DNA of 64,000 nucleotides from an uncultured Candidatus Binatia bacterium (GCA_958296235.1 OY282457.1:2597338-2661337), one strand, 5' to 3'; numbered from the stretch's first letter, positions 10,871 to 61,373 are shown. The notes: generated from the sequence alone by a model not told the origin. Program-made: numbers and translations.

Positions 10871-13405
10871 TCACAACAGGCTTTTCAAAAACTGGCCGGT
10901 ATACGATTGCTCAACGCGCGTCAGGTCCTCAGGCGTCCCGCAGGCAACGACCTTGCCCCCGGCCTCTCCCCCTTCGGGACCCAAGTCGATGATCCAATCT
11001 GCGGTTTTTATCACCTCCAGGTTATGTTCAATCACCACAACGGTGTTCCCCGCTTCAACGAGTAGGGTGAAAATATCCAGCAAGCGCTGAATATCGGCCA
11101 GATGGAGGCCGGTGGTCGGTTCATCAAAGAGGAATAAGGTCCGCCCCGTGCTTTTGCGGCTCAACTCTTTGGCCAGCTTGAGCCTCTGCGCCTCTCCACC
11201 AGACAGCGTTGGGGCGGCTTGGCCCAGACGCAAATATGCCAGCCCGACCGCGCGTAAGGTCTCCAGACGCGCCCGGATTTCCGGGATGTCGCCATAGAGG
11301 GCCACCGCCTCAGCGATCGTCATATTCAGCACATCGGCAATACTCTGGCCACGCCAGGTGACTGCTAACGTCTCTCGATTATAGCGCTGGCCGTGGCACA
11401 CATCACACCGGACATAGACATCGGGTAAAAAGCTCATCTCGACCGCGAAGACGCCATTGCCTTCACACGCCTCACACCGTCCACCTTTGACGTTAAAAGA
11501 GAAGCGGTCCGGGTTATAGCCACGCAGCCTCGCCTCAGGCAGTTGGGCAAAAAGGGCGCGCAGCGGGCGGAGGAGCCCGATATACGTGGCTGGGGTGGAG
11601 CTGGGCGTTCGCCCAATAGGAGCCTGGTCCACCATTATCATCTTGTTAAGCTGCTGCCATCCCGAGAGCTGGCCGAGGCCTGCTGCGGTCGAGGGCGTAC
11701 CCGCCAGCGCAGCCGCCAGAGCCGGGACGAGGGCGTCGCTGATAAGCGAACTCTTGCCCGAGCCCGAGACGCCAGTCACACACGTCAGCGCCCCAAGCGG
11801 GAAGTCCACGCTGATATCTTTGAGATTGTGCACCCGCGTATGCGCGAGGGTGAGCAAATGTTTCGCTGCGCGTCGTTTTGTCGGTATGGAAATCTGCGAC
11901 TCGCCGGAAAGATAGTGTCCGGTCAGCGAGTCCGGGGCATTTTTTACGTCCTGCGGTGTGCCGACGGCACACACCCGCCCGCCCTGCTCGCCGGCGCCCG
12001 GGCCTAAATCAATCAGATGGTCGGCAGCCAGCATGGTCTCAGGGTCGTGCTCGACCACCACAACCGTGTTCCCCTGCTGACACAGCCGTTTGAGCATCTC
12101 CAGGAGTTGCTTGGTGTCACGCGGATGAAGTCCGACTGACGGTTCGTCCAGAATATAGATGACCCCGGATAAGCCATTCCCAAGCAGCGTCGCGAGCCGG
12201 GTACGCTGGGCCTCGCCCCCGGACAGCGACACCATCGGGCGGTCCAGGCTGACATAGTCCAATCCCAAATCAACCAGGGCCTGGAGACGCGAGACAATCT
12301 CCTGGCAGAGCGGCCGGGCAATCGGTTCTGTCTGTCCGCAAAAAACGAGCTGAGAAAAAAAGTCAAGCGCCCCTCCAAGCTGCCGTGCGTTGAGCTCGCT
12401 CAGGCTCCTGTCCCCGAGGCGTATCCCCTGGGTCTCCGGGCGGAGGCGTGAGCCGTTGCACCCGGAACAGACCTGCGAGTCACCTGCGTCCTGGGCGCTC
12501 CCCCGCTTTTTTGTCGTCCGCTCCCGTTGTACGCCCAGCCCTTCGCAGGTCGGACACGCTCCTTCGGGGCTATTGGGTGAAAAGAAGGCCGGGCTCAGCT
12601 CTGGATAGGCAAAACCACACGCCGGACAGATGAGGCGCTGGGTGAAGAGCCGCTCCTCGTTTTCCTCAATCAGCACTGTGACCACATCCTTGCCATAGCG
12701 CAAAGCCGTGTCCAGCGAATCGGCGAGGCGTTGGGCCACGCCACTTTTGACCACAAGCCGGTCAACGACGATATCGAGTTGTGTTTCGGCGATCTCATCA
12801 GGACTCAGCTGCGCAATTTTTCCGGCCAGGTCCAGCTCCATCAGGTCGTGGATCGTTCCGTTCAACCGGATACGGACAAATCCCGCTCTGTGCAGGTCCT
12901 GGAGAACGGTGTCACCATCCTCAGGATGGAAAAGGCGGATGGGCGCCAAAAGCTGAAGCCGACTCCCTGCGGGTAAATCGAGCAATTGGTCTACAATCTG
13001 GGGCACGCTGTGGCGTTCGATGACACGTCCACATTCCAGACAGTGCGGCGTACCGACCCGGGCGTAGAGCAAGCGCAGATAGTCGGCGACCTCGCTGACC
13101 GTCCCCACAGTTGAGCGGAGTGACGACGTCGTGCGCCGCTGTTCCAGCGCGACCGCAGGCGACAGGCCACTGATGGCATCAACATCGGGTTTGGCCGGCT
13201 GCGTCAGAAACTGACGAGCCGAGGCGGATAGCGAGGCCATATAGCGTCGTCGGCCCTCGGCGTACAGGACATCAAAGGCCAGGGTCGATTTCCCCGACCC
13301 GGAGACGCCGGTAATCACAACGAACTTCTGGCGTGGAATTTCAAGGTCAATGTTTTTGAGATTATGTTGGCGCGCGCCTCGGATCTGAATCGTCTCCACG
13401 GCCAA
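10871..13405 (-). CDS. uvrA: UvrA-family excinuclease ATPase, short form (844 aa)
   Basis: Two ABC ATPase modules (GVSGSGKST twice, LSGGEAQR twice) and zinc-module cysteines. The segment between CPTCEGLG and CSGCNGSRL is only ~20 residues. Confidence 0.9.
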
Positions 13406-13473
13406 CAGCCTAGCAGAAAGCTGAAATGGAGGTTAGAGACTGAGGGTCAGGGATGAGGAGTTGACCCCATTCC

Positions 13474-14976
13474 TTATGAGTCTTGCGAGCGACTCCAGCG
13501 TAAGACTGGCCGGCGGGCGGCGCGGGTTTCATCCAGGCGACTGACTGGCGTGGTAAACGGCGCTTGTTTAAGCAGGTCGGGCTGGTCGGTAATCTCCTGG
13601 GCAATGGCCAGCAGCGCGTCGGCAAATTCGTCCAGGGTTTCTTTGGTTTCCGTTTCCGTCGGCTCAATCATCAGCGCCCCGCTCACCACTAAGGGGAAAT
13701 AAATCGTCGGCGCATAAAAGCCATAATCAAGCAGACGTTTGGCGATATCCAGGGTCTTGACGCCAGTCTGATGAAACGAGCGATCCGAGAAGACACATTC
13801 GTGCATGCAGGGCTCTTGGGTGGCCAGGGTGTATACGGATTCGAGTCGTTTGCGGAGATAGTTGGCGTTCAGAATCGCCATGCGTGTGGCGTGCGTGAGC
13901 CCGTCTCCACCCATCGCCAGAATATAGGCGTAGGCCCGCACCAGGATGCCAAAATTGCCGTAGAATGAGCGTACCCGCCCAATTGATTTGGGAGCGGCGT
14001 CACTCCAGGACCAGGTGTCGTTCTGCCGGACAATCCGAGGGATGGGCAGATAGGGCTCCAGAATTTTTTTTACGCCAACCGGCCCGGCGCCGGGGCCACC
14101 GCCACCGTGCGGAGTGGAGAAGGTTTTATGCAGATTGAATTGAATAACATCCGCCCCCATATGGCCCGGCTTGGCCACACCCATCAGGGCGTTGAGGTTG
14201 GCTCCGTCCATATACACCAGCGCTCCGTGCGCGTGCAGCACATCGGTGATCCGAAGAATCTCGCGCTCAAAGAGTCCGAGCGTGTTCGGGTTGGTCACCA
14301 TCAGGGCGGCCACTTCGGCGTCCGTACAGCTGGCCACGGCGTCGGCGCTGAGCAGACCGTCCGCGCCGGTGGCGACCTGCGCCACGTCATAGCCGCATAG
14401 GGCCGCCGAGGCGGGATTGGTGCCGTGCGCACTCGCCGGAATCAAGACTTTCTTGCGCGGTGTTCCCCGGTCCTGATGATAGGCCCGGACGAGCTTCATG
14501 CCGGTCAACTCCCCCTGCGCCCCTGCCGCGGGCTGCAAGCTGATCGCATCCATCCCGCTGATCTCGGCCAAACAACGCTCAAGCTCGGCGAGCAACATCA
14601 ATGCCCCTTGGGCCTGATCGTCAGGAGTCAAGGGGTGGAGCTGGGCCAAACCCGGCAGGCGGGCCATATACTCATTCACCACTGGGTTATACTTCATCGT
14701 GCACGACCCCAAGGGATAGAGGGTCGTTGCCGCACTCATATTCCACTGCGACAGCCGCGTAAAATGGCGGACCACTTCGCCTTCGCTGACCTCGGGAAAG
14801 TCATCGAGCGCCTCCCGGCACAGTGCGGCCGGCAGATCGCGGGCCTGATCACGCTCGGGGATATCGTCCCGTGGGAGCGCGTAGCCGACCCGTCCGACTG
14901 ATCCCCGCGCCGATATCAGGGGTTCGTTCAGCACCGTCCGTTTACCCGGACCGGGAGGGCGAGCTGGAGTCTTCAT
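13474..14976 (-). CDS. gcvPB: Glycine dehydrogenase (decarboxylating) subunit 2
   Basis: 500 aa; PLP-site context NLHKTFSTPHGGGGPG; 4-nt overlap with gcvPA. Confidence 0.95.
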   Translation of the reverse strand: MKTPARPPGPGKRTVLNEPLISARGSVGRVGYALPRDDIPERDQARDLPAALCREALDDFPEVSEGEVVRHFTRLSQWNMSAATTLYPLGSCTMKYNPVVNEYMARLPGLAQLHPLTPDDQAQGALMLLAELERCLAEISGMDAISLQPAAGAQGELTGMKLVRAYHQDRGTPRKKVLIPASAHGTNPASAALCGYDVAQVATGADGLLSADAVASCTDAEVAALMVTNPNTLGLFEREILRITDVLHAHGALVYMDGANLNALMGVAKPGHMGADVIQFNLHKTFSTPHGGGGPGAGPVGVKKILEPYLPIPRIVRQNDTWSWSDAAPKSIGRVRSFYGNFGILVRAYAYILAMGGDGLTHATRMAILNANYLRKRLESVYTLATQEPCMHECVFSDRSFHQTGVKTLDIAKRLLDYGFYAPTIYFPLVVSGALMIEPTETETKETLDEFADALLAIAQEITDQPDLLKQAPFTTPVSRLDETRAARRPVLRWSRSQDS

Positions 14977-56542: not shown

Positions 56543-56836
56543 ATGAAACTCCTTGGGCGCGCTGTCCGATGGGACAACGAAAAAAATATACGGCTCAAAA
56601 AAACAAGAGGGATCGGGTTTGAAGAGATTGTAGAAGCGATAGAGGATAACCTGCTGGACGATATGAGACATCCCAATGCGGAACGCTATCCGCATCAGAG
56701 GATATTTGTTGTTCGACTTAATGAGTACGCTTACGTCGTCCCCTATGTAGTAGCGGACGACAATTCATACGTTCTCAAAACAGCTTATCCAGATAGAGCT
56801 ATGATGAAAAAGTATTTGCGAGAAGGTGAGGACTAG
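56543..56836 (+). CDS. BrnT-like (DUF497) toxin
   Basis: Start at MKLLGRAVRWDNEKNIRLKKTRGIGFEEI, which matches the BrnT W-D-x-x-K-N...HG(I/V)xFEE pattern; 97 aa. Confidence 0.65.
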   Translation: MKLLGRAVRWDNEKNIRLKKTRGIGFEEIVEAIEDNLLDDMRHPNAERYPHQRIFVVRLNEYAYVVPYVVADDNSYVLKTAYPDRAMMKKYLREGED

Positions 56837-56838
56837 CC

Positions 56839-57534
56839 ATGCCCGCCGAGTATGTTCACTTTCACGACGAGCCGCTGGACGAGGAGGAACGACAGTTGAT
56901 GAAGGAACTGGACGCTGGGGAATGGGTTTCCGATCCTGACTTTCTTCGTACAGGTCCGTTTGTGGAGACTATCTCTGCACTCGAAGTGGCTGCTGACGAG
57001 CTTGCACGCACCCGAACGGACTCGTATCGCTGGAAATGGGTTATCCTGGCATTGCACAGCGCCTTACAGGGCATGATGGCCCTGGCGCTTGAAGGGGGTA
57101 ATGGGCTCAGAGTGCTGAAACCCAAGGACGCAAAGCGATGGCTGGACGCTTACGAAAGCGGTGCCCCGCTCCCGGCAGACCTGGAAATGGACAGCTTTCT
57201 CAATCTGTATGAGAAGATCAAAAGCGAGACCCTTCGTTTTTATGTAACCAGCAAAAAGCTTACGCCTGAAGAAATTCAAGAAAAGTCGATCAAGGACCTT
57301 AACCGGCTCCGAAATCAATTCATCCATTTCACCCCGTGTACCTTGTCTCTCATATTGAACGGACTTCCAGAAATGACGCTTGACTGCCTGAACATTGCTC
57401 GGTTTCTTGCCTATGACTCGGGGAACATAGATTGGCCTGAAGAGTTGGTTGAGCGACTGGAAAAAGCCTTCAGGGCCGCGGCTCAGGCAGCACGGGAGAT
57501 AAAAGAAGCCTACGCTCTCCCGCCTCAGGTATGA
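56839..57534 (+). CDS. Hypothetical protein: antitoxin-like N-terminal motif fused to a helical domain with an R-x4-H (HEPN-like) motif
   Basis: 231 aa starting 3 nt after the BrnT-like stop. LDEEERQLMKELDAGEWVS resembles the N-terminal motif of BrnT-associated CopG-type antitoxins. NRLRNQFIHF is present later. Confidence 0.65.
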   Translation: MPAEYVHFHDEPLDEEERQLMKELDAGEWVSDPDFLRTGPFVETISALEVAADELARTRTDSYRWKWVILALHSALQGMMALALEGGNGLRVLKPKDAKRWLDAYESGAPLPADLEMDSFLNLYEKIKSETLRFYVTSKKLTPEEIQEKSIKDLNRLRNQFIHFTPCTLSLILNGLPEMTLDCLNIARFLAYDSGNIDWPEELVERLEKAFRAAAQAAREIKEAYALPPQV

Positions 57535-58118: not shown

Positions 58119-58411
58119 TCAAGCGGAGTTTTGTTTTTCTTTTTCGTATTGCTCCCATCCGAAACTGGTCAAGTCAACCACGAAAAACTTGGAACTTCCA
58201 CAGGTTTTGACAGGATGCAACATGGTAATGACTCTCTCATCAGACAGCTCTTCCATAAGTTGACAAACAACTTGGTTGTCCCGTGCGCCTATTTCTTCCT
58301 GGATGTCTTTCCACCAAAGTTCCAGAATCGGTCCCTGTAATTGCGATATTTTGTCTCCAATATAAAGACTAAGCTCTCGTTTTGTTGTGTAGGACTAATG
58401 AATTCACTCAT
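58119..58411 (-). pseudogene. Small gene downstream of the 738-aa gene, apparently frameshifted
   Basis: ATG at 58411 with GAGGAGGA upstream gives MSEFISPTQQNESLV..., which stops after 38 codons. A second frame continues SLYIGDKISQLQGPILELWWKDIQEEIGARDNQVVCQLMEELSDERVITMLHPVKTCGSSKFFVVDLTSFGWEQYEKEKQNSA-stop at 58119. The span is 293 nt, not a multiple of 3. Confidence 0.35.
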
Positions 58412-58444: not shown

Positions 58445-60661
58445 TTATGTTTTCGACCGCCAGGGAATAGCGGCGAAAAAACTTTTCAACTCCTCGCAAC
58501 GTTGCAGCCTGAGTTCGAGAATCCGAAGGTTCTCTTGCGAGCCTCCAAAGGCAGTTCGCAACTCCTCCACATACTTCTTGTGAGCCTCGTCAAGGCTATC
58601 TGCTCCCTCTTGAAAGGCGGCCAAAGTTTCGTCCCAAAACTTCTTGACTGTCCCTTCAAGAGTCGACAAAACTCGTTCTTCAACAAACAATTCTCTAATT
58701 TTTTTGGCTAAACGATACCGCCAATTGCCTGCGAAAATCCGCCATACCAGTGCTCCGACGCCAACAGCTATTGCTAACCCCAAAGTAACCGGCCCCCCCA
58801 AAGTGGCGACAATTGAGGTCACGCCAGCCGCTCCAGCCGCCGACGCGGAAGAGATGCCCAATGCAGCGGCCGCCTTGGCAACTATGATATACCCGCCAAG
58901 ATTTCCTAACGTGGCCGCCCAGGCTCCAAGCGCCCCAAGCGTTCCGAGCCCGGCTAATCCGCCCAGAAATGCTGCCTTTGCGTCAAATGAAAATCCAGAA
59001 TCTCCCGGTGCCGCATCGCTAAACTCTCCCATTTTCTCATCATAGTCTTGCACGAATTTTTCAATGAGGTCCCGAGTATCGTCAATTAGCCCTGATCGAA
59101 AACGCGCTGTCTTGGATTGAATCTCTTCCAGGACGTATCCAGCGGCAAGCTTTTGCGCGTCTTTTTTATTTGCGTAGCGCCGTTCGATCATCGCTTCCAG
59201 GTTTTCAATCCACGTTTCGTTCTGGAAGACCGTTCGTACATTTTCCAGGTCTCGGTCCTTGAAAGAGGTTATTTTGTGTTTGACGCGCTCAACTAGCGTG
59301 CCATGTTCCTTTCTTCTTGCGGGTTCCGCCTCTTCCAGCTTCTCAAGGAGGCTCTTTGCCTCATTTTTCTTTCTCAGAAGTTTTTCATACTTGCCAATTC
59401 GCTTCGCATAGAAGGCTGGTCCTTCCTCCTTGAAGCGGCGAATTTCACGTCCCGCGTCTCTCGTCTGAATAGTTGGCATACGTGCCTCCAGGAGAAGCTT
59501 CAGCGCGTATTCCAGCTTTTGCCGTCGTGCGGGAGTTTCCTGGTAAAAGCTGAAAAAGCGGGCTTGAACGTCCTCGAACGCGATGGGCCGTCCAATCTGA
59601 CGCTTCAAGTCCTCAAAGAGATTCCCTTCAAAATGCCGGTAAAAATCCTGCGCTCCCTTCTCCAAAATTTCACCGGTGATCTGGTCGATTGTGATACCCG
59701 GATGAGCGTGTGAGGCAACGATGAAAAAGTTGCCGAGAACCGGGAAATGCTCGTCGCTCGCTTCATAGTGAGGAATCTTGCGCAACAAATGACCGATACG
59801 CATGAAGTCTCCGCTATCCAGGAATCCTTGAGCGCGGCAGATGTAGATCAAGGCAGAAGCTTGACTCCCAGCTTGGTCAATGAGCGTGGCTTTGGTCTGC
59901 GTGTCATCGTAGCCGGGCAAATCTACGAGGACGCATGAGTGGAGCAGCGGAGCGTTGACGAAAGCCAAGACGGCCCCTTCCTTATCGCTATCGTCCGCAC
60001 TGTGGAGCGTTGCGTGTTCTTTGAGCGTATCCCAACTCCCGGCCAGTCTCCGGTTTTCTGTACAGTGCTGTTTGTCATGCCACTTCTCAGGCTCGAACTC
60101 CGGCCCCATGAGCCATAGGTCTTCCTTGAGCCAGTCGGGACGGTCGGACGTATGGTGAACAAAGGTCGGATATTTTGTCGTCGGACGGTAGGCGGTCGGC
60201 AGATATGGGCCACCGAGATAAAAATTACAAAGATGGGATTTGCCCGCGTCGAAGTGTCCGGTGACCACGATCCACGGTTTTTCTGTGAGGGCAGTCACGC
60301 GGTTACGGAATTGCGCGACAGTAAAAGGGCCGTCTTCTCCCTCACTTGTCTCCTCCAGATTGGGAAAGCGGTCGATGTATTGCTGGAGCAGGTGCAAATT
60401 TTCGGTCAAGTCGGCGTAAGGGCTGTCATCAAAACCAAAAATAGGCGTCATATCGACTGACTCATTATCGCCGGGTAAGATGTCGTCCGCCGTTACGCCG
60501 AGGAGCCGTGCCCACAGTTTTATCAGGCGAGGAGGAATTTCTTCGCTTTCCTCATATTTAGAGATTTGACCCTGCGTAATCCCGAGCTGTTGAGCGAGAT
60601 CAGCTTGGGTCAATCCTGCCTGTTGCCGGAGTTCCGCCAACCTGGACCTATTTGAAACCAT
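58445..60661 (-). CDS. XRE-type HTH / dynamin-like P-loop NTPase / coiled coil / Gly-Ala-rich membrane hairpin fusion protein
   Basis: 738 aa. N-terminal LRQQAGLTQADLAQQLGITQGQISKYE (Cro/C1 HTH). GHFDAGKS (G1) and VLVDLPGYDD (G3-like DxPG). Long charged helical region. FLGGLAGLGTLGALGAWAATLGNLGGYIIV...LGLAIAVGVGALVWRIF hydrophobic hairpin. GAGGAGGA RBS. Confidence 0.85.
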   Translation of the reverse strand: MVSNRSRLAELRQQAGLTQADLAQQLGITQGQISKYEESEEIPPRLIKLWARLLGVTADDILPGDNESVDMTPIFGFDDSPYADLTENLHLLQQYIDRFPNLEETSEGEDGPFTVAQFRNRVTALTEKPWIVVTGHFDAGKSHLCNFYLGGPYLPTAYRPTTKYPTFVHHTSDRPDWLKEDLWLMGPEFEPEKWHDKQHCTENRRLAGSWDTLKEHATLHSADDSDKEGAVLAFVNAPLLHSCVLVDLPGYDDTQTKATLIDQAGSQASALIYICRAQGFLDSGDFMRIGHLLRKIPHYEASDEHFPVLGNFFIVASHAHPGITIDQITGEILEKGAQDFYRHFEGNLFEDLKRQIGRPIAFEDVQARFFSFYQETPARRQKLEYALKLLLEARMPTIQTRDAGREIRRFKEEGPAFYAKRIGKYEKLLRKKNEAKSLLEKLEEAEPARRKEHGTLVERVKHKITSFKDRDLENVRTVFQNETWIENLEAMIERRYANKKDAQKLAAGYVLEEIQSKTARFRSGLIDDTRDLIEKFVQDYDEKMGEFSDAAPGDSGFSFDAKAAFLGGLAGLGTLGALGAWAATLGNLGGYIIVAKAAAALGISSASAAGAAGVTSIVATLGGPVTLGLAIAVGVGALVWRIFAGNWRYRLAKKIRELFVEERVLSTLEGTVKKFWDETLAAFQEGADSLDEAHKKYVEELRTAFGGSQENLRILELRLQRCEELKSFFAAIPWRSKT

Positions 60662-60825
60662 GACCTATCCTCCTCTGTACCGTATATGCTGAGACAGATA
60701 TAAATATAAAAAATATAATTGTCAAGGATTTTATTAGTGAAAATAATCTATATTTGTATATATTTACGTTAATAATTCCATAATTATCTGTTGATGTTGA
60801 TAATTAATACACATAAAATATCCAC
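60662..60825. promoter_or_regulatory. Extremely AT-rich divergent promoter region between the HTH-NTPase gene and the RHH-MazF operon
   Basis: A 164-bp spacer consisting almost entirely of A/T runs (atataaatataaaaaatataattg..., ttgtatatatttacgttaataatt...) in an otherwise GC-rich window. Confidence 0.45.
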
Positions 60826-61056
60826 ATGAAAGCAATACAAATTACCTTTGACGAAGGGCTCTTGGAAACGCTCGATCAGGACGAAGAGGTCCAACAGAAA
60901 GGCCGCTCGGCGGTCATCCGTCGAGCGGTGACTGACTATTTGCGCAAGAAACACCGGGAGGCGATTGCAGCGGCCTACCAACGCGGCTATGGCAAACACC
61001 CGACAGACTCAGACCTCAATGGCTGGGCGGATCAAGGAATATGGCCAGACGAGTAG
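60826..61056 (+). CDS. Ribbon-helix-helix (CopG/MazE-like) antitoxin
   Basis: 76 aa; MKAIQITFDEGLLETLD...RSAVIRRAVTDYL RHH pattern; 16-nt overlap with the mazF-like gene. Confidence 0.8.
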   Translation: MKAIQITFDEGLLETLDQDEEVQQKGRSAVIRRAVTDYLRKKHREAIAAAYQRGYGKHPTDSDLNGWADQGIWPDE

Positions 61057-61373
61057 AAATCGCCAGGGGAGAAGTCTGGACGTACGAGTTTCGGCGACCG
61101 GATAAACGCCGCCCTGTCTTAGTCCTCAGCCGGTCAGAGGCTATCAATATACTTCATACGGTACTCGTCGCCCCGCTCACGTCAACGATTCGTGGCCTTC
61201 CTAGCGAAGTCGTAGTCGGAACGACAGAAGGCCTTAAGCGTGAGTCGGCGATCAATCTCGATCATATTCAGACTGTCGAACGCACTCATTTATCTCACTA
61301 TATTGGTCGCCTGAAGCCGGATCAGATGCAAGCAGTATGTCGGGCAATAGCTGTTGCAACCGGATGTGACTGA
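61041..61373 (+). CDS. mazF: MazF/PemK family endoribonuclease toxin
   Basis: 110 aa; RGEVWTYEF...KRRPVLVLS...VLVAPLTST...INLDHIQTV pattern. Confidence 0.9.
   Translation: MARRVEIARGEVWTYEFRRPDKRRPVLVLSRSEAINILHTVLVAPLTSTIRGLPSEVVVGTTEGLKRESAINLDHIQTVERTHLSHYIGRLKPDQMQAVCRAIAVATGCD

Follow-up and report, generated by a model that had tools for sequence, protein, structure and literature searches.

The gene at positions 58445-60661 of a stretch of DNA from an uncultured Candidatus Binatia bacterium (GCA_958296235.1, OY282457.1:2597338-2661337; 64,000 nucleotides (nt), here called the window) is almost certainly genuine and encodes a complete bacterial dynamin-like protein (DLP) with a phage-repressor-type helix-turn-helix (HTH) domain at its N terminus. 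The family of this protein, which we call HTH-DLP, is widespread, horizontally scattered and apparently undescribed, and brings into one chain two activities that had not been reported in combination. We place HTH-DLP best among the bacterial dynamin-like proteins, nearest to LeoBC, and we lean, with confidence that is about evenly balanced, towards reading it as a membrane-anchored NTPase of the BDLP class, related to LeoBC, that would act with its tethered HTH as an antiphage or stress module at the membrane and be autoregulated through that HTH. Bacterial DLPs are common, yet only a handful have a known role, and a DNA-binding domain wired to a dynamin-like engine gives a handle on the signal that is read and on the control of expression or targeting.

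HTH-DLP is encoded by one uninterrupted open reading frame (ORF) of 738 codons on the minus strand, which starts with ATG and is preceded by the ribosome-binding site (RBS) GGAGG at 60669-60673, 7 nt 5' of the start codon. The Pfam model HTH_3 matched residues 8-60 (8.6e-12), and HTH_31 (1.1e-9) and HTH_19 (1.5e-8) also passed their gathering scores. The phage 434 repressor was the top sequence match to this domain in the PDB (4e-6), and its Gln17 and Gln28 align with Gln19 and Gln30 of HTH-DLP, which are conserved in at least 90% of homologues. In a structure predicted with AlphaFold2 (AF2) from a 68-sequence alignment, the domain consists of five helices (7-14, 19-26, 30-39, 44-54 and 58-61) at a predicted local distance difference test (pLDDT) score of 84-91, and is joined to the body by a linker, residues 65-70, with pLDDT <50. 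A five-helix, HTH_3-type domain recognised by profile is what characterises the XRE family, and the PADLOC models for capH, RmrA, HTH_VI and control proteins match the same region. The N-terminal 60 residues are like those of XRE/Cro-C1 repressors and HTH antitoxins (434 cI, HipB, PezA, CapH and C-proteins), with the DNA-contact glutamines kept; those proteins, however, are small or fused to sensor or peptidase domains, and we found none fused to a dynamin-like NTPase.

The G domain that follows belongs to the dynamin superfamily. Dynamin_N was recognised on residues 131-279 (1.7e-12; 48 bits against a Pfam cut-off of 27), and the region contains G1 (GxxxxGKS/T) as GHFDAGKS at residues 135-142, the G2 Thr in PTT, and G3 (DxxG) as DLPG at 247-250 within VLVDLPGYDD (244-253). 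In alignments of 26, 68 and 58 homologues, G135, G140, K141, P160, T162, D247, P249 and G250 were invariant, and so was D138 in the alignment of 68. A canonical G4, (N/T)KxD, was not found: FFIVASHAHP lies at residues 312-321, with S317-H-A-H320 in place of the motif, and in a profile alignment to the solved Campylobacter DLP2 (5owv_C) the S-Q-A-H of the family falls under N-Q-K-D. Across genomes the G4 consensus is [ST][HQ][AV][HD], and the Asp is retained only in the cyanobacterial clade, in P0079, in L050 and in the copy on plasmid pIL7 (loci are labelled L and family proteins P). As this G4 has no guanine-binding Asp, even the use of GTP is uncertain; judged from the motif, His in place of Asp might confer a specificity other than GTP.

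Past residue ~83, the whole protein is predicted to be a DLP of the BDLP/mitofusin class. The AF2 model had a mean pLDDT of 77 and a predicted template modelling score (pTM) of 0.75, and was low only at the linker and in the hairpin (548-557 and 571-644). It runs from the five-helix HTH through a neck helix and a mixed alpha/beta G domain to three very long helices (377-546), the hairpin and the return helices (647-730), with the neck helix 83-124 and helices 377-430, 432-482, 485-495 and 499-546 at pLDDT ~80-95 and the C-terminal helices at 647-661, 664-706 and 710-730. Foldseek searches of the PDB ranked Nostoc BDLP (2j69/2j68) first, with E 3e-12 (3.4e-12 for 2j69) and a template modelling score of 0.43-0.46 over ~750 columns, followed by Campylobacter DLP1 and DLP2 and mycobacterial IniA, and then by mitofusin/Fzo1, SynDLP, LeoA, Drp1, Mx and EHD4; the alignments to 2j69, 6j72 and 5owv were full length. 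The neck helix, G domain, neck/trunk, tip hairpin and return helices are shared with BDLP, mitofusin/Fzo1, DLP1/2 and IniA (Foldseek E 3e-12 to 1e-8), and the stalk is formed, as modelled and in the Foldseek alignments, by helical bundles from segments on both sides of the G domain. HTH-DLP differs from the BDLP class in its sequence (11-16% identity), its extra HTH, the His for Asp in the G4 of most members and its long, GxxxG-rich hairpin. The Pfam model Dynamin-like_hel_bact was matched by one family member.

Hydropathy revealed two hydrophobic stretches, 563-606 and 611-647, between the trunk helices, with a basic flank, RYRLAKKIR, on the C side. The hairpin of ~86 residues is rich in glycine-zipper-like GxxxG repeats and has a mean Kyte-Doolittle value of ~1.1-1.5 in nearly all of 59 homologues; by hydropathy it corresponds to the paddle or transmembrane hairpin of DLPs, and, given the low AF2 confidence there, it may either span the membrane or be monotopic. 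W647, W676, F728, F729, P733 and W734 are conserved, and both the hairpin and the FFxxIPW motif are kept in nearly all homologues. A preliminary description of this DNA, made from the sequence alone, had reported a single ORF with a strong RBS, a Cro/C1-type HTH in residues 1-60, Walker A/G1 GHFDAGKS and DxPG G3 VLVDLPGYDD, FFIVASHAHP instead of a canonical N/TKxD G4, and charged helices followed by a Gly/Ala-rich hydrophobic hairpin and a helical tail. All of these were recovered, and the central region, which it had taken for a P-loop NTPase, passes the Dynamin_N cut-off and is predicted to have a BDLP-class fold.

HTH-DLP is one of many. We obtained 84 clusters at 90% identity with a word-indexed search, reaching down to 29% identity with the query and nearly all with HTH and Dynamin_N, and 60 loci when one genome of each GTDB species was scanned; Dynamin_N was present in 58/58 and HTH_3 in 51/58 of the full ORFs from genome loci (E<=0.001). 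When 1.84 billion representatives were searched exhaustively with a profile, 544 of them (50% identity clusters) scored E<=1e-30, and the best 150 of the profile matches were almost all ~730 amino acids (aa) long and aligned from profile position ~3-6. Copies occur in at least 10 phyla, the hosts being Binatia and Latescibacterota (52-71% identity), Poribacteria, Nostocales, Myxococcales, Acetobacteraceae, Firmicutes, Bacteroidales, Treponema and Fusobacterium. The family is without a dedicated Pfam, NCBIfam or PADLOC model, and its members carry generic source names such as 'hypothetical protein', 'helix-turn-helix domain-containing protein', 'dynamin family protein' and '50S ribosome-binding GTPase'. 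We found no description in the literature of an HTH-dynamin fusion or of a lactococcal Abi system of such kind, and a review of cyanobacterial DLPs makes no mention of an HTH-dynamin class. The preliminary description, which knew of no architecture joining an HTH to a membrane dynamin-like protein, was right in this respect, and its candidate for an undescribed system in the window is indeed undescribed as an architecture, but it is not unique to the window.

The same counts bear on the idea that the fusion is an artefact, either of an assembly or sequencing error that merged an HTH gene and a DLP gene, an outcome that the preliminary description had considered, or of a gene decaying into a pseudogene. 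The chance of this is negligible in our view. The adjacent 97-aa gene is frameshifted, so local indel errors or decay do occur, and some relatives are without the HTH. Against that, the same single ORF of ~730 aa recurs in 51/58 independent genomes that span many phyla, and hundreds of clusters at 50% identity contain it; the catalytic motifs are all intact, and the regions upstream of the HTH-less variants encode no separate HTH. HTH-less DLPs of 669-670 aa were found at L070/L071 3001-5010 and L072 3001-5013, starting at the equivalent of Met70 of the window protein, with an RBS at that point in L070. Two proteins without the HTH are P0016, which is 78% identical to the query and has an RBS of its own (GAGGAGG), and P0060; upstream of P0016 we found no HTH-coding sequence, whether separate gene or remnant. 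Because such variants exist with no HTH upstream, we regard the HTH as an accessory module on a DLP able to stand alone and not as a wrongly merged gene. An internal start in the HTH-bearing genes of the same subclade is a possibility suggested by these sequences.

Searches with tblastn located family members on ten plasmids, all typed mobilizable: Carboxydocella pCCELLA01, Acinetobacter pMsp11, two Lactiplantibacillus plantarum plasmids and six Lactococcus plasmids including pIL7. HTH_3 and Dynamin_N were present in 3/3 plasmid copies scanned with Pfam, and the Carboxydocella copy aligns end to end with the family profile. The plasmid copies adjoin replication, mobilization and hsdS genes, the pIL7 copy (WP_014011569.1) lying between hsdS and an IS3 transposase. 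Phage-encoded copies were rejected, the only candidates being four Vibrio phages with a match to the G domain alone. The copies on plasmids of Lactococcus lactis, Lactiplantibacillus and Acinetobacter provide experimentally tractable members, and natural comparisons are offered by the non-canonical G4, the HTH-less variants and a clade with a Tox-GHH cassette, described below.

The plasmid contexts raise the question of a tether between DNA and membrane, in which the HTH would bind DNA, whether specifically or not, and the DLP would anchor and move it, either to maintain a plasmid or chromosome or to keep incoming DNA out. In spirit this resembles CrfC, a dynamin-like protein of Escherichia coli that binds the clamp. 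We think this unlikely. One chain does combine a DNA-binding-type domain with a membrane anchor, copies do lie next to replication, mobilization and hsdS genes on small mobilizable plasmids, and the NCBIfam CrfC model matches weakly at the P-loop (0.025). However, that similarity is confined to the P-loop, most copies are chromosomal and single, HTH-less variants occur in the same clade, and the surroundings of the gene showed neither partition-type repeats nor centromere-like arrays.

The closest catalogued system is Eleos (earlier 'Dynamins'), an antiphage system consisting of the two-gene pair LeoA + LeoBC (10.1101/2022.12.12.520048). The LeoBC profile of PADLOC matched 56/58 family members (best 7e-24) and LeoA 45/58, and the window protein matched LeoBC at 6.6e-8 and 30 bits, a partial and weak match of residues 426-704 to profile positions 334-563 of 601. 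HTH-DLP is like Eleos in its dynamin-type G domain, long helices and hydrophobic membrane segment, and in being accessory and horizontally distributed. Unlike Eleos, with its two adjacent dynamin-like genes, it is a single gene, and the two-gene arrangement is absent from the window: no second dynamin-like ORF was found within 6 kb in the window or in 58/59 other loci. Many bacterial DLPs are likewise encoded as tandem pairs (PMC4159319), whereas HTH-DLP is solitary. The N terminus differs too, as LeoC of enterotoxigenic Escherichia coli provides an N-terminal membrane anchor (PMC4159319) and that of HTH-DLP is a cytoplasmic XRE HTH. Because of the single gene, the HTH at the N terminus and the weak scores, we consider HTH-DLP a distant relative of LeoBC and not a member of Eleos. 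The only locus with two dynamin-like genes is L016, from a metagenome-assembled genome of Myxococcales, where an 808-aa protein with DUF4365 (5e-9) and Dynamin_N (1.6e-12) is encoded directly 3' of HTH-DLP (12408-14834).

A solitary DLP may act at the membrane on its own. The two-headed DynA of Bacillus subtilis takes part in phage defence there, in a role that depends on the membrane (PMC12998192; 10.1101/2025.03.27.645684), and offers a plausible mode of action. It differs from HTH-DLP in being a fusion of two complete DLP units, in having no HTH and in being a core chromosomal gene, and the NCBIfam DynA model gave a match at the level of the P-loop only (0.034). We found no description in the literature of the way in which Eleos-type dynamins stop phage.

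Taken as an antiphage or stress module, HTH-DLP could work as follows. The Gly-rich hairpin would anchor the protein in the inner membrane. Both termini would be cytoplasmic, since HTH and G domain alike have to be in the cytoplasm and the flank on the C side is basic. Nucleotide-dependent pairing of G domains would drive assembly, and the membrane would be remodelled, sealed or perturbed as by other bacterial DLPs. Paired DLP bodies would bring two HTHs together and so couple DNA binding to the state of assembly, as XRE HTHs usually act as dimers on palindromes. The most likely target of the HTH would be an operator at its own AT-rich promoter, and incoming foreign DNA an alternative. What we infer comprises the topology in the membrane, the use of nucleotide, the binding to DNA, autoregulation and the role in defence, and we hold any specific step of this mechanism with much lower confidence than the reading as a whole. 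A role of the antiphage or abortive-infection type seems the most likely one because the family is mobile, usually solitary and often near toxin-antitoxin (TA) genes, and because one clade has an operon with a GHH nuclease and a SUKH-like gene. A more elaborate version is possible and put forward tentatively: a single-polypeptide sensor-effector in which dynamin assembly gates the HTH or the reverse, a one-gene relative of Eleos that would defend against phage or foreign DNA, perhaps with a nucleotide other than GTP at its G4, and that would head a four-gene GHH-nuclease system in Firmicutes, Bacteroidales and Treponema.

Several points weigh against an autoregulated, membrane-anchored antiphage or stress module. 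No PADLOC model exists for the family, the window protein matches LeoBC weakly and over part of its length, and the LeoA-type partner that Eleos requires was not found; nor did we find a paper that ties the family to defence. Enrichment in defence islands is not demonstrated statistically, given 152 Pfam families among 150 neighbours. The missing guanine-binding Asp of G4 makes the use of GTP uncertain, the hairpin is modelled at low confidence, and the close relatives P0016 and P0060 show that the DLP body can do without an HTH. No conserved palindromic operator was found among relatives, and the locus, being syntenic between Binatia species, behaves here as a stably inherited gene.

The upstream region contains a candidate promoter. 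The 164-nt intergenic tract between HTH-DLP and its divergent neighbours lies within a 200-nt upstream stretch of 27% GC, in line with the extremely AT-rich promoter of the preliminary description. On the minus strand it has TTGACA at 60720-60725, a 17-nt spacer and TATATC at 60697-60702, a pair that the consensus promoter scan did not list as TATATC is without the final T. The same layout of -35, 17 nt and -10 (TTGACA/TTTACA and TATATT/TATATC) with an A/T-rich block recurs in L001, L003, L004, L062 and L065, and the window and L001 share ~80% identity in this block, which directly precedes the -35. The gene appears to travel with its own AT-rich promoter in GC-rich hosts. Imperfect inverted repeats lie at 60731-60745/60761-60775. 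As a conserved operator, a palindrome upstream was rejected: none was found across relatives, which share only the sigma-70-like promoter and the A/T block. Autoregulation of HTH-DLP is plausible on the basis of the domain and its upstream region. Just upstream of the mazE-like gene, at 60781-60806, there is a perfect 8-nt inverted repeat, TAATTATC-N10-GATAATTA (60781-60788/60799-60806), for which a role as operator of the ribbon-helix-helix (RHH) antitoxin, and not of HTH-DLP, is plausible.

A promoter of its own also suits a sensor of membrane stress coupled to repair, as opposed to a phage-specific defence. Damaged or curved membrane would attract the DLP, as it does DynA, the HTH would be titrated off its operator and the gene would be derepressed, which by analogy would resemble PspA/PspF or PutA collapsed into one polypeptide. 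The full BDLP-class fold with hairpin, the HTH on a flexible linker, the conserved promoter with mostly no partner genes, and the stable synteny of the locus between Binatia species agree with this account, which we nonetheless find doubtful. The patchy phyla, the plasmids and the association with TA genes and with Tox-GHH/SUKH-like genes suit accessory conflict genes better than envelope maintenance, no operator was identified, and a truly transmembrane hairpin would keep the protein always at the membrane, so that simple relocation could not act as the switch.

A subset of relatives has a conserved gene order. In 16-18 loci of Firmicutes, Bacteroidales and Treponema, a co-oriented three-gene cassette lies 3' of HTH-DLP. 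The first gene encodes a 278-aa protein without Pfam match after a gap of ~61 nt, the second a protein of ~390 aa whose Tox-GHH domain (6e-14) is an HNH-type nuclease and whose C-terminal half is hydrophobic and multi-pass, and the third a protein of ~125 aa with weak similarity to SMI1/KNR4 (SUKH; 0.014). Toxin-immunity pairs are hallmarks of conflict systems, and, judged by its sequences, the cassette has the look of a conflict system, so far undescribed, of gut-dwelling and anaerobic Firmicutes, Bacteroidales and Treponema. It is the strongest contextual evidence for a role of the family in conflict, and it is not directly applicable to the window, as the Tox-GHH/SUKH cassette is absent from the window and its clade.

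The cassette could alternatively mean that the DLP is a helper in the deployment of toxins, driving vesiculation or the insertion or release of a partner toxin, which in the cassette clade would be the Tox-GHH nuclease and in the window would be supplied in trans or have been lost. The four-gene arrangement in 16-18 loci, with a nuclease that bears transmembrane segments next to a SUKH-like gene, favours this idea. LeoABC and IniA/IniC have been linked to vesicle release. Knockouts of LeoA and LeoB release fewer vesicles (PMC4159319), and mycobacterial DLPs are reported to mediate vesicle secretion (PMC10240201). For the window protein we judge it very unlikely: the cassette is missing there and from the whole clade, the SUKH assignment is weak, and nothing ties the MazF or BrnT-like toxins of the window to membranes.

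Outside the cassette loci, the neighbourhood of the family is diverse. The 150 nearest neighbours of non-cassette loci fell into 152 Pfam families, and since no neighbour family occurs more than three times, there is no obligate partner. Clade members adjoin integrase, resolvase and pentapeptide genes, and other family loci adjoin genes for STAND-type ATPases, for DUF433/DUF5615, SIR2_2, nucleotidyltransferase and VapB proteins, and for GIY-YIG proteins and transposases. A small DUF4258 gene is directly adjacent in at least 9 loci from three phyla, and a protein of ~240 aa with DUF3944 + Ubiq_cyt_C_chap, 42-60% identical among Acinetobacter, Megasphaera, Clostridium and Binatia, is encoded at most 5 kb away in five loci; on Acinetobacter pMsp11 (L068), the DUF4258 and DUF3944 genes make up an operon that diverges from the DLP gene. 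In the subclade of P0006, P0009 and P0016, the DLP gene is followed by a variable first gene and then by two genes without Pfam matches (146-151 aa and 51 aa).

Table 1. Features of the HTH-DLP locus, with coordinates in the window, and recurrent neighbours at other family loci, with coordinates in each locus.
Feature	Coordinates	Strand	Evidence or remark
HTH-DLP, 738 aa: XRE HTH, dynamin-like G domain, helical neck and trunk, hydrophobic hairpin, C-terminal helices	58445..60661	-	ORF, Pfam, AF2, Foldseek
XRE/Cro-C1 type HTH (residues 7-62) and low-confidence linker (65-70)	60476..60643	-	HTH_3, 434 repressor match, AF2
Dynamin-type G domain (residues ~128-372)	59546..60280	-	Dynamin_N, conserved G1-G3
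G1 GHFDAGKS	60236-60259	-	motif
Candidate G2, P160/T162		-	motif
G3 DLPG	59912-59923	-	motif
G4-like S-H-A-H	59702-59713	-	motif
Long helices of neck and trunk (residues 377-546)	59024..59533	-	AF2, BDLP 2j69 alignment, PADLOC LeoBC match
Gly/Ala-rich hydrophobic hairpin (residues 560-646), at the position of the DLP paddle/transmembrane region	58724..58984	-	hydropathy
C-terminal return helices (residues 647-730), then FFxxIPW at 728-734	58472..58723	-	AF2, conservation
AT-rich divergent intergenic region	60662..60825	.	sequence
Downstream 97-aa gene, disrupted	58119..58411	-	intact orthologue in L061
MazE-like RHH antitoxin (60826-61056) and MazF/PemK toxin (61041-61373)	60826..61373	+	RHH_1, PemK_toxin
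BrnT-like small toxin gene (likely 56543-56836) and 231-aa gene (56839-57534)	56543..57534	+	weak Pfam, L061/L001 conservation
DUF4258 / DUF3944 neighbours	L068 1030-2040; L029 12241-12963; L036 5074-5796; L004 13094-14838; L065 9298-9567, 11328-12566; L002/L005/L006 ~-379; L019, L022, L028		
Two-gene pair without Pfam matches	L062 10619-11213; L063 10647-11241; L070/L071 5412-5991		called sizes and spacing match; absent from window
Tox-GHH cassette loci	L018, L023 (2683-5086), L030, L031, L033, L034, L042-L047, L049, L053, L055, L056, L059		

The HTH-DLP gene of the window lies in a segment of low GC, 0.44-0.55 between ~56500 and 61250 as against 0.58-0.66 outside. Its divergent neighbours match RHH_1 (8e-6) and PemK_toxin (2.8e-20), and NCBIfam and PADLOC scans of the neighbours in the island gave no matches to defence systems. 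L061, with a 94% identical relative, is fully syntenic with the window, MazEF included. In a second member of Binatia (L001, OY761159.2), the order is TPR lipoprotein (77% identity), CDP-alcohol phosphatidyltransferase (80%), HTH-DLP (~71%), variable cargo, 231-aa protein (70%), BrnT-like protein (64%) and CoA-transferase (95%). As the segment is syntenic in L001, we regard it as an accessory region that has long occupied one chromosomal site while its cargo turned over, and on this comparison the island is older than the split of the two Binatia species. MazEF was rejected as part of the module, being absent from L001 and from other relatives, and its absence from the syntenic L001 makes it a lineage-specific addition. 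At L001 12344-13198, the slot of the 97-aa gene of the window is taken by a 285-aa gene of the LRAT family (NlpC/P60-like acyltransferase/phospholipase; 4.7e-21), which is a case of cargo turnover at a fixed site.

The preliminary description thus fared less evenly with the surroundings of the gene than with the gene itself. Its AT-rich inserted island does have low GC, but the locus predates the species split; its divergent MazEF-type genes are present, but not as part of a module; and its mobile module agrees with the mobilizable plasmids and with the integrase, resolvase, transposase and TA neighbours of the family, but not with a Binatia locus syntenic between species. The small gene that it took to be coupled downstream, a 40-aa ORF at 58289-58411, proved to be the 5' fragment of the 97-aa gene, which the family as a whole does not conserve. 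In the window, loss of 1 nt between 58380 and 58381 shifts its frame; L061 (10251-10544) has it intact, the DNA being 98% identical with a single gap, and the frameshift could reflect a real pseudogene or a homopolymer-type sequencing error. It has no Pfam match, and we rejected it as a conserved partner, as it is frameshifted here and unrelated genes are found in L062, L063, L070 and the Latescibacterota loci.

At the other end of the island, the BrnT-like gene has weak Pfam matches only (BrnT_toxin 6e-4 and DUF4258 0.06). The 231-aa gene lies tightly 3' of it and has no family, and the protein was rejected as a relative of the DUF3944/Ubiq_cyt_C_chap proteins (BLASTP E 2.4 and 0.61). L061 and L001 keep the pair next to the DLP gene as well, and from this arrangement it may be a TA-like module with an unusually large partner. 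In L001, the 231-aa gene is tandemly duplicated into a single ORF of 430 aa.

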